Position numbers and translations under genes: made by a program. Under the pieces are notes generated by a model. It did not search any database and was not told the DNA's origin. It worked only from the letters and a program-made list of their open reading frames with translations. DNA of 64,000 nt from Promethearchaeia archaeon. GTDB taxonomy: Archaea; Asgardarchaeota; Lokiarchaeia; Sigyniarchaeales; SOKP01. The DNA lies in contig JAHQWJ010000062.1 in the NCBI GenBank assembly GCA_029856125.1, positions 64,001 to 128,000 on the forward strand, written 5' to 3'. Position 1 is the first letter of the stretch; each line of letters opens with the position of its first letter. Of this stretch, positions 46,523 through 52,205 are shown one piece after another.

Positions 46523-47563
46523 TTACATTTTATGAGGAAATAAGGCAGTAAGTATATTATCTTTATAATTTGCTTTTATTACCTTAGCTTCAATAACTTT
46601 TCCAATTAGATTATCCGAAAAAACTATTGGTTTTTTCAATAATACCTTTATTCCAAGCGAATCATTGATTTTACCGATACACTCGTTTTCCCACCTTCCC
46701 CTCGATACTATTTTTACTTTAATTAAGTCGTCTTTCTGAAGATTCAAGGTTGATATGCGTTTTCTTTTATGAATTCCAAAATCGTTAGGTCCAAGTTTTA
46801 ATTTAATCTTGAATTTTTTTTCCAACCGGGACAAATATAAATAAAAATAATCCCAAGATTTTGGTTGTATTTTTTTTAGGGCTCTACCAGTCTTGTAAAT
46901 TAAATATTTCTGGATACCTATTTGTAATTGACTCTTTGAATATCCCTCATTCCTTACGTTAAGAACAAATTCTATAATTTCTTCAATATCCTTGTCGTTT
47001 TCTCCGGGAAACCATACTGGTGCGATTAATACTTGTATGTTGGAATCCATCAGCGTATAAATATTACTAATAAGCTTGTCGACATCATATTGAGTACAAT
47101 TGCATAGATAACAATCCGTCTCCTCTTTTAGACTATTTAAGCTTATATTAATTCGAGTGAGTTTAGATTTTTTTAATTTTTTAATAACTGGTTTCGAAAG
47201 TAACAAACCATTAGATTGCATTGATCTAATTGAGATTCCTTTGATCTCTGAGAGTCTTTTTAAAAGATTTTCAAGTTCTTTGTAAAGTAATATCTCTCCA
47301 TAAGGAGAAAGATGAAGTTCGAGATCATAGTCACCTTTTATTCTGACAATATCTAAAACTTTTTCAATTAAGTAGTTTGAATCTACGATAAAGTTAGTGT
47401 TGTAATTACCAGAACTTACAAAACAGTACTTGCATTTGAGATTGCAAAGAGTAATTGGTTTAAGTTCGATTACATTTGTCCCTCTATCAATGATCCCTAA
47501 AAAATCTACTCCCATTAGAGGGATTTTTGAGGGTTTATTAACATATTGCATTTTATCGTTCAT
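46523..47563 (-). CDS. Radical SAM protein with C-terminal TRAM-like domain
   Basis: GIIDRGTNVIELKP.TLCNLKCKYC. Confidence 0.85.
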   Translation of the reverse strand: MNDKMQYVNKPSKIPLMGVDFLGIIDRGTNVIELKPITLCNLKCKYCFVSSGNYNTNFIVDSNYLIEKVLDIVRIKGDYDLELHLSPYGEILLYKELENLLKRLSEIKGISIRSMQSNGLLLSKPVIKKLKKSKLTRINISLNSLKEETDCYLCNCTQYDVDKLISNIYTLMDSNIQVLIAPVWFPGENDKDIEEIIEFVLNVRNEGYSKSQLQIGIQKYLIYKTGRALKKIQPKSWDYFYLYLSRLEKKFKIKLKLGPNDFGIHKRKRISTLNLQKDDLIKVKIVSRGRWENECIGKINDSLGIKVLLKKPIVFSDNLIGKVIEAKVIKANYKDNILTALFPHKM

Positions 47564-47593
47564 GGTAGAATAAATAGTAAGCTTTTATAGTTC

Positions 47594-48667
47594 TTAAATT
47601 TTAAATCTTAAAATAGCAACAATAGATCCCAAATCAATTATTTGTTTCCCTGTTGGGTGTTCGCTGCTTAAAATATGAATTTCTCCACCCAGAGATTCTA
47701 CACCGTTTAATAATTGTTCTATTCTTAATTTCTGTTTTTTTGATGCACCCCTTATAAGAATATCTGCACAAAAAAGCTCTTTTACTGCTCTTTTTTCAAT
47801 AGCATTCGAGATTTCATCGAACCCAATTGCAATTAAATCTGAATTGGTGCTAAATAACTGAAAAATTTCCTCAATTTTCTCAGTTTCAAGGAAAATTTTA
47901 ACGTTTTTCTGTAGGAGTTTGAGTTCTTTTGATTTAAGAATTTCTAGGATAGCACTTTCAGTTCCGGAGCCAGCTTGAATGCTCACGATTTTCGGTAACT
48001 TCGTTATTTGGGCTTTTTCTTTAATAAATTGTTTTAAGTGATCCTTTGTACTCCCTGGACCACATAATATTATGATTTTTAAGTCTACGCGTTCTGTTTT
48101 TTCTTTAATTATACTGCTAATATCACTATAAAATTCTTCGTACGCTTTATTTCGATGTGATTGTTCGTATCTTTTGCCCGGGATATTTTTTTTTACCGTA
48201 GCTATTCTATTATGACTGTAATTTGTAATGAGAGCGATTGTTGCCAACCCAGATTCGATCGCTACTATTAGCATGACAAAATCAGTTTGAAATCGGGGTG
48301 ATTTCCCGAGGCGCTTAATCTCGCTTTTTAACCACTTAGGTTTTTCAATTGTTAATTTTTGTCCTGGTTCTATATTAAATGTATGATATGTCCCATACGA
48401 AACAAAATCTTCTGGGCCTTCTAAGATGGTTCCTTTCACTCTTAGTCGGTTTGAAAACTCGTGGAATGCGATAGAATCGACGTTAAGTTTCAATTTCATC
48501 TGTTTTCTTTCTCCTTTAGAACCTTCTTTTAAAACGATTCTACGGTTTGTTCGTGAAGTAACATGGTCGTTTTTGGCAATGGTATTATAAAGCGTCCATA
48601 GATCGTTTAAATCTTCGATTCTTAATGAAATGGTTTCCTCCTTCTTATCAATATCCAGAATTTTCAT
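47594..48667 (-). CDS. pelA: Pelota/Dom34 mRNA surveillance factor
   Basis: EDLNDLWTL, RLRVKG.I, G.YHT, GPG..K and SSEH..G.Q...LG.I.AILRF motifs. ATG at 48667. Confidence 0.93.
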   Translation of the reverse strand: MKILDIDKKEETISLRIEDLNDLWTLYNTIAKNDHVTSRTNRRIVLKEGSKGERKQMKLKLNVDSIAFHEFSNRLRVKGTILEGPEDFVSYGTYHTFNIEPGQKLTIEKPKWLKSEIKRLGKSPRFQTDFVMLIVAIESGLATIALITNYSHNRIATVKKNIPGKRYEQSHRNKAYEEFYSDISSIIKEKTERVDLKIIILCGPGSTKDHLKQFIKEKAQITKLPKIVSIQAGSGTESAILEILKSKELKLLQKNVKIFLETEKIEEIFQLFSTNSDLIAIGFDEISNAIEKRAVKELFCADILIRGASKKQKLRIEQLLNGVESLGGEIHILSSEHPTGKQIIDLGSIVAILRFKI

Positions 48668-48813
48668 TGGGCACTTCAAACTCAAAATTCCTAAATTTTT
48701 ATAATTAATCCTAACAATTAAGTTTAACACACTTAAATTGCATCTTGCTTGGGGAATTGTGAGTTAACTAAGAATAAAGAAAAAAAATATAAAAATACAA
48801 AAACACCTAAAAT

Positions 48814-48966
48814 TTAATCTGTTGCTCCTAAGGCTTGTTTAACTTTTTCTAATTCTTCCATTCGTTTCTTTTTCTCTTCTTCGCGTTTTTTCATGTCTTC
48901 CTCGTCAACCTTTTGGAGAGCAACACCTTTTTTAATTTCGTCTTTCAATTCGTTTCCTAACGACAT
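48814..48966 (-). CDS. 50-aa WH2-like microprotein (absent from ORF track)
   Basis: MSLGNELKDEIKKGVALQKVDEEDMKKREEEKKKRMEELEKVKQALGATD*. ATG start with AAAGG/GAG upstream and T-tracts downstream. Confidence 0.75.
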   Translation of the reverse strand: MSLGNELKDEIKKGVALQKVDEEDMKKREEEKKKRMEELEKVKQALGATD

Positions 48967-49075
48967 AATAACTCAAACCTTTTAGTTTAGTTTCCTTTTA
49001 TGAGCACATTATCAATGCGTTCTATACACAATTTATGATAGAATTTATTTATAAGTCTTGGTTTTTAGAAAATGA

Positions 49076-49522
49076 TCAAATGTTCAATATCATTAAGTAA
49101 GCGCTTTGTTTGTCCCGATAATAATTTTCTATTCTTTGTGCGATTCGAAAATTAAATTTTTGATACAAGCTTATAGCAGCTTTATTTTTAGAGTTCACAT
49201 TCAATACAATTGTTTTTATCTCATCCGATGTTTTTACTTTATTCAGGGTGTATCTTAAGAGAAAACTCCCATAACCTCTTTTTCTTTCCCCTTTTCTGAT
49301 TAAAAAGTTAATCAAGTTTACTCTCTTATCTCGATCTTGAATAATAATGATGAACCCTATAATATTATTCGATAATTCGTCATCGATGAGCTTAAAAAAA
49401 TATGTGTTCTTCATTATCAAATTAAGAATTAATTCTTTAGAAAATGAGTCCTTCTTAAAAGATTTTCTTTCTAAATTGTATATTTCATCTAAATCCTTAA
49501 GAGTGACTGTATCAATAATCAT
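49076..49522 (-). CDS. RimI/Ard1-like GNAT N-acetyltransferase
   Basis: RKRGYG, LNV...NKAAISLYQKFNF and ENYY.D..SAYLM motifs. Confidence 0.85.
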   Translation of the reverse strand: MIIDTVTLKDLDEIYNLERKSFKKDSFSKELILNLIMKNTYFFKLIDDELSNNIIGFIIIIQDRDKRVNLINFLIRKGERKRGYGSFLLRYTLNKVKTSDEIKTIVLNVNSKNKAAISLYQKFNFRIAQRIENYYRDKQSAYLMILNI

Positions 49523-50663
49523 TTAGTCCCATCTCTTCTTTGAATAACATGATAGGTGTTTTTTCCGTTATTTGTTGATATTTATCTTCTCGAAACGGTG
49601 TCATTTCTATTACAAATCCTTGTAATTTATGCTGAATTAGTAAATCCATAAAAATTTCTTCCATCGCAAACTTTATGGGTAATTTAATAGTAGTAGCTTC
49701 GCAAGAAAAGAAGTTTTGAGGGATTTTTAGTTTATTTAATAAAAGATTACAAAACTCATCAATTTTCTTCTCCTCGCCTTCAATTAGAGCGTATAATAGC
49801 AACCCCTCTCTCGTGATTTCTTCGTATTGTAATTTAATAGTTTTTGCGCGTCTTAAGTACCTTTCTCTCAATTGCCAATAATCCTTAGCTATAATCGTGC
49901 AAAAATGAATTTTTATTGGAACTTTTGGAACGATATCACGCATGAGCTTCATTGCACATTCTTTACTATTCTTTACAGATGCTATTGTACCTGCTTCCAA
50001 CTTAAAATTTCGGTCTTTAAGGTTTTGACTATTTGGTAAACTATACTCAAATTCATTCAAATTGATAAAATCTGCGCCTATTTTGTTCAAATAAAAAATG
50101 AATTTTTTCAAATTATCTATATATTCCTCTTCTGGAATCACAGGTACTTCAGCACCTACAGACATACCCTTGTTTAATGCGTATTTAATCACGTTCCAAT
50201 TTTCTTTTGATGGGTTGAATCTAATTTCGTCTAACCCTGCTCGAGCGAGCTTTGTCGCAATTTCTTTGCTAAAATTAAGACCGTTGGTATAAAGGTGGAT
50301 ATGAAACTTTTTTCCTTTAATTTCTTTGATGAATTTGATATATTCAAGCGTTTTTTTTAAGTTGGGTTCATATAATGGGTCTCCGCCCGTAATACTCATT
50401 CCTTTCGCATTAATAGCTTTAAGTTCGAGGAGTATTTGTTCTTTAGAAGATATTTGAATCTCATTTATATAGGTATCTTTCTTACCTTTTCGTTTTTCAG
50501 AAATCGGACAATACCACCAGCAATGTTTTGGATTCTGACAGATTCCATTAAGAAATAACACTGCTTTAGTACCCTTTAAACATTGTTGACATCCTTTAGG
50601 AATTCCTTCTTTTTTTACGTAAAATGTCTGTGCCTTAGATTCTAAAATTACTGGATTTCTCAT
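49512..50663 (-). CDS. Radical SAM protein (archaeal PflA-like family)
   Basis: PKGCQQC..G.K, CQNPKHCWWYCP, ITGGDP, HLYTNG and GLDEIRF motifs. Confidence 0.85.
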   Translation of the reverse strand: MRNPVILESKAQTFYVKKEGIPKGCQQCLKGTKAVLFLNGICQNPKHCWWYCPISEKRKGKKDTYINEIQISSKEQILLELKAINAKGMSITGGDPLYEPNLKKTLEYIKFIKEIKGKKFHIHLYTNGLNFSKEIATKLARAGLDEIRFNPSKENWNVIKYALNKGMSVGAEVPVIPEEEYIDNLKKFIFYLNKIGADFINLNEFEYSLPNSQNLKDRNFKLEAGTIASVKNSKECAMKLMRDIVPKVPIKIHFCTIIAKDYWQLRERYLRRAKTIKLQYEEITREGLLLYALIEGEEKKIDEFCNLLLNKLKIPQNFFSCEATTIKLPIKFAMEEIFMDLLIQHKLQGFVIEMTPFREDKYQQITEKTPIMLFKEEMGLNDY

Positions 50664-51367
50664 CTTTGTAACAGTTTTTTTCTCACAATTGATTTTTCAT
50701 TGGCTAATTTTTTTAACACATCTTCGGTAGTCTCGTTCATTTCAATTGATCTCTTTAGAAATACGCCTGTTTTTCCAAATTTTTCTCTCTTTAAAAGAAC
50801 TCTTTTTCTTTCATTAATCAAATCAATACTAACATTCAACTGCTTTGCAGCTAAATTTTCATTTCCAATAATCGAATATTCTTCATGACCATAAGAAATT
50901 GGTTGAATTAAAACTAACCTTTTATCGATTCCAGGGACTCTAATACTATTTTTTACTTGGTTTAGATTAATTTTTCCTCCAAAATCGTAAAATTCGCTTG
51001 ATTTTTTATTGAACTTAGATATTGGAATTGTTATGCTCTCTAACTCATCTAAGTAAATGTAGAGTTTCAATGTGTCAGCGGGAGTTGCCATAATGATTTC
51101 TCGGAAGTAATTATTAAAACCGTTCTTGTCGAGTATTATTTCTATTTGATATGGAGCGATTGATTGGGTTAAAACCATGTCGATATCGCTATCGTTATGG
51201 ATGTCGCCTCGGGCAATACTACCATATACATATAGATTCAAACCTTCTTTAGCGAACATCTCCAACAGCGTTTTAGTTCGTTCTCTTTTTTGTTGTAATA
51301 GTTGTAAATGGTTTTCAGAGTATGTAACCTTATTAAAATGATCTCTTAGAATTTTATGTCCTTTCAT
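50660..51367 (-). CDS. Pol-beta-like nucleotidyltransferase domain protein
   Basis: YGSIARGD....SDID, EFYDFGG, RVPGIDKRL and GKTGVF motifs. Confidence 0.85.
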   Translation of the reverse strand: MKGHKILRDHFNKVTYSENHLQLLQQKRERTKTLLEMFAKEGLNLYVYGSIARGDIHNDSDIDMVLTQSIAPYQIEIILDKNGFNNYFREIIMATPADTLKLYIYLDELESITIPISKFNKKSSEFYDFGGKINLNQVKNSIRVPGIDKRLVLIQPISYGHEEYSIIGNENLAAKQLNVSIDLINERKRVLLKREKFGKTGVFLKRSIEMNETTEDVLKKLANEKSIVRKKLLQR

Positions 51368-51392
51368 TAGAATTTAATCGCTTCTATCTTTT

Positions 51393-52205
51393 TTACTGTT
51401 TCTCAATATATCCAATTATTACGCTTAAAAGTAATGTTTCGTAATACTTGAATGTGCTTTTAGTTTTTTTGATAATAGTATATTTGGTGTATTTAAATAT
51501 TTCTTTATTATGTAGTATCTTTTTTACTTTCTTGTTTTTAAAAAATGGATTTAATTTCTCACTAAGTATCGTAACTAATTTAGATTTTGTGTTTGAATCA
51601 GTTAGTAAAGTTAAATATACTTTCAGATTGTAAGAATTTAAGCGTGGGTTAATCAAAATTATGTTGCTACAATGGTAGTCTTTCAAAAGAAGATTCAAAG
51701 GTAAAACTTTTTTGGTAAAATCAATAACCTTATAATTCTGACTTAACAAGTTAAGATCTTGATTGTAAAACATTATAATAGTAGGAAAAGTTTGTTGCAA
51801 CTCTTTTTCAATATCAGATATCAATCGTTCCGTCAAGTTTTTATTTGATATTTTAAGCCGTAAGCTTATTACGTTATATCCAGACGTACAAAATGCTTCT
51901 GTGAGCGCTTTCAACATCATTAGTTTTCGATACCTTTTTATTAAGATTATTGTCGGTTTTATTAAATCTTCTTGCTGAAAAACGCTAGAAGTAGTCAGAT
52001 TGCACTTTTTTATAGATATAGACGAAAACTGATTGTTAATATCCAGCAGGTTATCAACTTCCCTAATCGTAGAAACATTTGAAAAAAAAAATCTCCATCT
52101 ATAAATTTCTTTAAATATCTTTACACAGATTAAAAGCAGGATTAACAATATGATTATGATAATATCAACTGTAATCCAATCAACTTGAAAGATGTCAAAT
52201 GTCAT
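51393..52205 (-). CDS. Hypothetical protein with N-terminal TM anchor
   Basis: IIIIILLILLLICV TM segment followed by an alpha/beta-like soluble region. Confidence 0.6.
   Translation of the reverse strand: MTFDIFQVDWITVDIIIIILLILLLICVKIFKEIYRWRFFFSNVSTIREVDNLLDINNQFSSISIKKCNLTTSSVFQQEDLIKPTIILIKRYRKLMMLKALTEAFCTSGYNVISLRLKISNKNLTERLISDIEKELQQTFPTIIMFYNQDLNLLSQNYKVIDFTKKVLPLNLLLKDYHCSNIILINPRLNSYNLKVYLTLLTDSNTKSKLVTILSEKLNPFFKNKKVKKILHNKEIFKYTKYTIIKKTKSTFKYYETLLLSVIIGYIEKQ

Follow-up and report, generated by a model that had tools for sequence, protein, structure and literature searches.

A WH2-like module occurs as a free-standing 50-residue protein in an Asgard archaeon and is a candidate regulator of archaeal actin

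We found that the 64,000-nucleotide stretch of Promethearchaeia DNA analysed here (the window) encodes, on its minus strand at 48814-48966 (stop codon included), a 50-residue protein that is best described as a WH2-like module joined to a conserved charged helix and that falls outside both Pfam WH2 and beta-thymosin. The protein appears to be the free-standing, single-copy form of a ~45-residue module specific to Asgard archaea, in which an amphipathic helix is followed by G-x-x-L-x-K-V and then by a long charged helix; the source genome carries exactly one copy. Judged from sequence, the module is a good candidate for a new type of actin regulator in archaea, and we place direct binding of actin monomers by the 50-residue protein, in the fashion of WH2, a little short of an even chance.

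The reading frame runs from ATG to TAA and its product is MSLGNELKDEIKKGVALQKVDEEDMKKREEEKKKRMEELEKVKQALGATD. A preliminary description of this DNA had placed a clean ATG-TAA frame between a GNAT gene and pelota. The frame is present at the positions given there and has 50 codons, and the three genes lie on the same strand, which that description had left unnamed and which is the minus strand. Failure of conservation had been named beforehand as grounds for abandoning the proposal; the genus has an intact orthologue in 24/24 genomes and the family in 63/68, and the frame on the nearest public contig (SOKP01000306.1) is 98% identical. A large protein collection contained 484 homologues of 26-93 aa, all labelled 'hypothetical' and free of any Pfam domain. 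The suggestion that annotation pipelines miss the frame did not hold, since the orthologues are annotated as 'hypothetical protein' in NCBI MAG records and gene callers thus do not overlook it systematically. Across 22 orthologues, variable sites fell on the three codon positions as 21/13/39 over 41 codons, and the median dN/dS was 0.13. The short length and the low-complexity, E/K-rich composition would fit an untranslated frame that arose by chance in AT-rich spacer DNA, but the conservation data refute this: the codon-position pattern, the dN/dS value, the 484 homologues, the conserved signals for ribosome binding, promotion and termination, and the presence of the module inside long ORFs leave that reading practically no room. 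The 50-residue ORF is a genuine gene under strong purifying selection.

Putative expression signals flank the gene, all on the minus strand. A BRE/TATA-like box (ACTTATAAATAAA; 49040-49056), probably the promoter, lies about 80 nt upstream of the ATG and is unchanged in 14 orthologous spacers, while adjacent bases drift. A Shine-Dalgarno-like site (GGT(G)/GGAG; 48977-48980) precedes the ATG by 11-14 nt, and sites of this type are kept among orthologues 8-14 nt before the ATG. Past the stop codon, an oligo-T (T8) run at 48780-48787 is a probable archaeal terminator, and T-runs follow the stop codon in nearly all orthologues. Fixed elements of these three kinds amid a drifting spacer argue for a monocistronic gene, and the ORF is therefore likely to be transcribed independently, from a predicted promoter and to a predicted terminator of its own.

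Both neighbours belong to recognizable families. Upstream lies a RimI/Ard1-like GNAT N-acetyltransferase (49076-49522, minus strand; PF00583 Acetyltransf_1, 50.5 bits), whose closest NCBIfam model is TIGR01575 rimI at 77.5 bits, below the cut-off of 86.4. Downstream lies Pelota (47594-48664, minus strand), with its eRF1_1/2/3 domains. The order GNAT-ORF-pelota-radical SAM recurs in ~60/62 family loci and in one sister-family genome in which the neighbouring proteins are only 29-44% identical. Such persistence could mean that the protein works with the RimI-like N-terminal acetyltransferase, with Pelota or with both, as a substrate, a cofactor or a small ribosome-associated factor; the product starts with Met-Ser, Met-Thr or Met-Pro, and Ser N-termini are typical acetylation substrates. 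We nevertheless consider such a partnership unlikely. Gene order that is common to relatives is weak evidence of joint function, the gene has its own predicted promoter and terminator, no ribosomal or translation family matches the sequence, and the neighbourhood is missing in family f4 and around the tandem and fusion forms of the module described below.

The same position beside a GNAT gene, together with paralogues in which an N-terminal RHH domain precedes the unit, brings to mind TacA/TacT-like systems, with the unit as the toxin-neutralising tail of an RHH antitoxin and the ORF as a minimal antitoxin for the GNAT. We rejected this reading as very improbable: the GNAT is RimI-like rather than a tRNA-acetylating toxin, the ORF lies downstream of it with a predicted promoter of its own and lacks an RHH domain, the RHH+unit paralogues are located away from GNAT genes, and the lineage keeps the gene as a stable, single-copy member of its core set.

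The wider region (window 46523-52205, minus strand) is a co-directional cluster kept across the whole family, which comprises an unknown membrane ORF, a nucleotidyltransferase, a radical SAM protein, the RimI-like GNAT, the mini-protein, pelota and a radical SAM protein. One contig labelled 'Candidatus Nanopelagicaceae bacterium' (DATKTW010000134.1; L052) carries this entire Asgard cluster, its proteins being 83-93% identical to those of the window, and is therefore probably misbinned or mislabelled. NCBI labels also varied among MAGs of the window's own genus, from Hod-, Hermod- and Thor- to Odin- and Heimdallarchaeota.

We then modelled the protein with AF2, which predicted a helix at residues 3-12, a loop at 13-21 and a second helix at 22-47 (pLDDT 82.6, pTM 0.40). 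The WH2-like half, residues 6-20 (ELKDEIKKGVALQKV; 48907-48951, minus strand), comprises a short amphipathic helix and the L-x-K-V segment, and the long charged helix, residues 22-47 (EEDMKKREEEKKKRMEELEKVKQALG; 48826-48903, minus strand), was modelled as helical with pLDDT >90. Among 26 aligned orthologues, G14, L17, K19, E29, E30, K33 and R35 are invariant, and at least 90% of the sequences retain E6, L7, I11, K12, V20, R28 and several residues of the tail. The preliminary description had made its case depend on conservation of I..G..L.KV, and the alignment bears this out, with three of these positions invariant (G14, L17, K19) and L7, I11 and V20 at or above 90%. The predicted helix 3-12 is amphipathic, with its hydrophobic residues, including L7 and I11, on one side. 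In the window's protein the first hydrophobic position of this helix is occupied by Glu, while the tandem and profilin-fused units show the full LLxxI/LIxFF pattern. An LKKT/V-type motif follows at fixed spacing, with L17 six positions after I11; L17 and K19 are invariant and V20 nearly so, and the first basic residue of LKKV is absent (LQKV).

The charged helix has two parts. Its start, residues 22-35 (EEDMKKREEEKKKR), consists of E, K and R only; this composition and the AF2 helix fit a single alpha-helix (SAH), whereas the position-specific conservation of E29, E30, K33 and R35 is atypical of one. Its end is amphipathic, through M36, L39, V42 and L46. In a hairpin, nearly every helix 2 residue opposite helix 1 would be a charged one, so that L7, I11, V15, L17 and V20 more likely form a partner-binding face than a hydrophobic core in the modelled structure. 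A Foldseek search of the model against the PDB returned no match, and Pfam and NCBIfam scans of the ORF gave noise only, with no family significant.

The claim that the N-terminus matches the WH2 pattern stood in part: the WH2-type positions are conserved and the likeness appears specific in both search directions, but membership of Pfam WH2 did not follow. The Pfam WH2 HMM (PF02205), proposed as a check, had no match on the ORF at E<=10, and a six-frame scan of its own genome with this model found nothing at the 48814-48966 locus. Relatives scored 12.8-13.8 bits, short of the gathering threshold of 23.1 bits. Membership of the beta-thymosins fared no better, as the Pfam Thymosin model (PF01290) matched neither the ORF nor any unit in the five genomes G000, G017, G027, G032 and G268. 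The architecture of a free beta-thymosin peptide (~40-50 residues; helix, LKKT segment, helix) is nonetheless seen in the model, as a helix at 3-12, a loop and a helix at 22-47. In a language-model atlas the nearest named clusters were also beta-thymosin, at 0.84 and 0.82, which we take as a lead only.

To compare the module with known structures, we searched the family profile against 177,635 distinct PDB sequences. An N-WASP tandem WH2 construct came out best (E 2e-5); its alignment is in register (LkeeIkkGvsLqKV versus LLDQIRQGIQLKKV) and has identical I-to-L spacing. This E value overstates the likeness, because it sums three near-identical repeats of ~9 bits each and because the family profile also gave aEF-1beta 14.5 bits. 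A second profile, confined to the N-terminal half and built from the first 32 residues of 37 units from all contexts, matched 4/177,635 PDB sequences at E<=10; the top three were N-WASP (twice) and Spire, with scores in the noise range. In the reciprocal test, the Pfam WH2 model was run against 11 whole genomes in six frames, and its best or only match fell on the motif family in 5/11 of them (12.8-13.8 bits): on a unit of a tandem protein in G032 and G036, on an orthologue of the 50-residue protein in G027 and G029, and on a Thorarchaeota protein in G268. These five genomes represent three independent contexts, and in G038 the match on the motif family was second best. Module-coding DNA makes up <0.05% of each genome, so this placement is far beyond chance, although unrelated LKKV-type strings score 12-15 bits with the WH2 model in the same genomes. 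The other top matches were such unrelated LKKV/LRKT strings and were set aside: a membrane protein in G000, a 217-residue putative regulator in G038, an off-frame stretch in G033 and a K-rich ORF in G035. These searches point to a likeness between the module and WH2 that is specific, yet below every threshold.

The module is re-used in longer proteins. An HMM search run exhaustively over 1.84 billion cluster representatives yielded only 64 members, and these, together with the sampled genomes, gave several architectures. Arrays, such as the tandem protein P0131, contain 2-10 units, and sister-family proteins of ~490 residues consist of ~10 tandem units. P0157, P0168 and P0141 combine a profilin with 1, 2 or 4 units behind it and a small C-terminal domain; a cassette of unit and C-terminal domain also exists by itself or preceded by transmembrane segments (P0162, P0179). 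Other proteins have the order Ras-family GTPase-unit-RHH-unit, LRR-unit-RHH, LRR-unit-zinc finger or RHH-unit, and a hexapeptide (LbH) transferase bears an N-terminal unit. The N-terminal domains encoded on L108 and L111 matched the solved Asgard profilins 5zza, 5yed, 5zzb and 7pbh (best E 1e-10 and 2e-9), a solid assignment by sequence; the corresponding profilin-unit genes lie at L108:1017-1790 (plus strand) and L111:1201-1953 (minus strand). The C-terminal domain shared by the profilin-unit proteins spans ~50 residues (…ITIKxKFxTDYIYDDFQLLxVKHxIExLI…) and has no relative in Pfam or the PDB. AF2 modelling of the 10-unit protein, from a shallow alignment of 7 sequences (pLDDT 61, pTM 0.22), gave a chain of helices of ~37 residues in which the segments with pLDDT <50 are the conserved G..L.K[IV]D loops. 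This model weakly suggests a linear array of binding motifs and does not favour a packed helical-repeat fold.

The GTPase and LRR fusions (L112:1089-2039, minus; L113:1227-2282, minus; L109:455-1510, plus; P0187, P0189, P0193) join a Ras/Roc-type small GTPase or leucine-rich repeats to a unit and then to an RHH domain or zinc finger. Their parts recall Roco-type signalling proteins, and there is a weak resemblance between the RHH parts and aCcr1 cell-cycle regulators (17-20 bits, cut-off 60). Two genes from one profilin-unit gene, in G235, we observed a Roadblock/LC7-Ras-family GTPase fusion and a CheB-like response regulator (L130:7835-8800, minus strand); this neighbourhood is not kept in G174.

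The variety of fusions bears on a second explanation for the module, namely that it has no connection with actin and serves as a general helical element for docking or spacing, made of a short recognition helix and an SAH-type charged rod. It would tether or space profilin, Ras GTPase, LRR and RHH domains, or bind some other common partner, and the free 50-residue protein would compete in that interaction or regulate it. The unit is usually flanked by an N-terminal domain on one side and by a C-terminal RHH, zinc-finger or small beta-alpha-beta domain on the other, its copy number varies, and in fusions the E/K/R-rich helix rather than the WH2-like half is the best-kept part. The WH2 scores, moreover, are within the noise range, and aEF-1beta and designed TIM barrels come about as close to the N-terminal half as WH2 proteins do. 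A pure spacer, however, leaves unexplained why G14, L17 and K19 are invariant and why a free-standing single-copy gene is held under purifying selection; the most elaborate fusion series involves profilin, whose only known job is to bind actin monomers; and searches with the WH2 model and against the PDB came back to this motif repeatedly, in both directions. We regard the docking or spacer role as a real possibility, though one that falls well short of probable.

The complete module is restricted to one Loki-type order among the genomes sampled, where it was found in 63/68 genomes of f1 (the family of the source genome), 7/7 of f2 and 4/4 of f4; none of ~225 sampled genomes of other Asgard families contained it, and weaker matches came from three sister families sampled (f2, f3, f4). 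Related N-terminal halves occur elsewhere. Thorarchaeota carry a conserved single-copy protein of ~315 residues (52/61 genomes; 221 homologues; no Pfam domain), with an internal, nearly invariant segment, DMQAELKASILxGvSLKK[T/V]. The only PDB match of this segment's profile was N-WASP WH2 (E 0.006), and its hhalign probability with the Loki N-terminal half was 96%. One such protein is encoded at L122:1354-2301 (plus strand) with its motif at L122:1813-1908 (plus strand), and others lie on L118-L129; the protein has no charged-helix tail and its gene neighbours are housekeeping genes. In a third Asgard family (f16), all 19/19 genomes encode a free mini-protein of ~56-61 residues (L132:492-677, plus strand; also L134-L152), whose N-terminal half is of the same kind (EELKREIKKGAKLEHV) and whose tail is very conserved (DLSAEKALLEKLRAEGKLEEE). 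Its L, I, G and L positions are invariant, and the place of LKKV is not basic. The hhalign probability with the Loki family was 87%, and the PDB matches were less specific for WH2.

The Asgard actin and gelsolin background invoked in the preliminary description was confirmed in the source genome, which encodes Lokiactin (442 bits; G000 contig C63:2972-4084) and several gelsolin-domain genes, as well as three further actin-family genes and one weak profilin. No actin, gelsolin or profilin gene lies near the ORF in this genome, and the neighbourhoods of the tandem, profilin-unit, RHH+unit and Thorarchaeota genes are housekeeping or inconsistent, with no cytoskeletal pointer. To our knowledge, no Asgard formin, complete Arp2/3 complex or WH2 nucleator has been described. 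According to current work, Lokiactin is regulated mainly via profilins and gelsolins in Asgard archaea (bioRxiv 10.1101/2025.11.30.690169). Co-immunoprecipitation of Lokiactin from L. ossiferum in the same report singled out an Arf GTPase, a profilin and gelsolins, and its main text names nothing of the module's kind. Within our literature search, which covered part of the journals, the only WH2-like elements reported from Asgard archaea are four-residue gelsolin linkers (PMC7444086, PMC9433394, bioRxiv 10.1101/2025.11.30.690169), and no published description of the 50-residue module family was found.

Returning to actin binding as the reading we prefer, the N-terminal half (the helix with L7 and I11, the Gly cap and the extended L17-x-K19-V20) would dock like a WH2 motif, probably in the hydrophobic cleft on the barbed face of monomeric Lokiactin. 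The charged helix, by analogy with the C-terminal helix of thymosin beta-4, might run along the actin surface or recruit a second partner. The single-unit protein would then buffer or deliver actin monomers, and the tandem arrays and the profilin-(unit)1/2/4 proteins could line up several monomers and serve as nucleators or elongation factors. For this role we count the apparent identity of the conserved positions with those that define WH2, the outcomes of the PDB and reciprocal WH2 searches, the fusion, as judged from sequence, to profilin, a verified actin-monomer binder, the low-confidence loops of the 10-unit AF2 model, which may represent linear binding motifs, and a genome that encodes Lokiactin and gelsolins. 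Against it stand the failure to reach any curated threshold, the better conservation of the charged helix in fusions, the many fusion partners without a link to actin (RHH, LRR, Ras GTPase, LbH transferase), the frequent linker-like position of the unit between two domains, and the confinement of the full module to one order among sampled genomes. The broader proposal, that Asgard archaea own a WH2-type monomer-binding family as a third class of actin regulator beside profilin and gelsolin, we put forward tentatively and with less assurance than the binding of actin by the protein itself.

If the broader proposal is correct, the 50-residue protein would be the free, thymosin-like form of this family, the profilin-(unit)1/2/4 proteins and the arrays of 4-10 units could be the missing Asgard actin nucleators or elongators, and the related N-terminal halves in Thorarchaeota and the third family would push the age of the motif back beyond a single order, either ancestral to eukaryotic WH2 or convergent with it. 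Binding of actin by the module would add a monomer-binding peptide and, in its tandem and profilin-fused forms, plausible nucleators, while the GTPase and LRR fusions would offer a possible link from signalling to actin assembly. Should it not bind actin, the module would still be an undescribed and widely re-used docking module of Asgard signalling proteins.

Among known systems, the closest comparison is with WH2 itself (PF02205; N-WASP, WAVE, WIP, Spire, Cobl, VopL/VopF). The module resembles it in the succession of amphipathic helix, Gly and L-x-K-V, in the placement of L six residues past the last helix hydrophobic, as in the N-WASP register, and in its occurrence singly, in tandem arrays and on the C-terminal side of signalling domains. 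It differs in its obligatory, strongly conserved charged helix of ~26 residues, in the usual lack of the first basic residue of LKKV (LQKV), and in the Glu at the first helix hydrophobic position. Like the beta-thymosins (thymosin beta-4, ciboulot, actobindin; PF01290), the 50-residue protein is a free peptide of 40-50 residues with an N-terminal helix, an LKKT-like segment and a C-terminal helix, and has multi-repeat relatives; its C-terminal helix, however, is much longer and of other sequence. E/K/R-rich SAH domains share the composition of residues 22-35 and the long isolated helix of the AF2 model, but SAH segments have no position-specific conservation, no hydrophobic N-terminal motif and no amphipathic C-terminal end, unlike the module.

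Two archaeal systems can be set beside it. The LKKT-type linkers of Asgard gelsolins (LRRV, LKHV, LVDV/LKDV) are WH2-like and contact actin in crystal structures (PMC7444086, PMC9433394, bioRxiv 10.1101/2025.11.30.690169). Such a linker comprises four residues between two gelsolin domains and has no amphipathic helix of its own, whereas the module is autonomous, brings its own helix and is found as a free protein, in arrays and joined to profilin. In Pyrobaculum, the C-terminal helix of arcadin-2 plugs the hydrophobic groove of crenactin and sequesters monomers, and its authors noted no sequence similarity to actin sequesterers (PMC5173319). Arcadin-2 thus sets a precedent in archaea for the sequestering of an actin by a short helix, although it belongs to another lineage and acts on another actin, and its arcade cluster stands beside crenactin while the module gene is unlinked to actin genes. 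A eukaryotic parallel exists for the profilin-(unit)n proteins P0157, P0168 and P0141: in the trypanosomatid Leishmania, a WH2-like helix and the profilin that carries it bind one actin monomer together (PMC10907219). The trypanosomatid motif is an insertion inside the profilin fold, whereas in the Asgard proteins 1-4 units follow the profilin and precede the small C-terminal domain.
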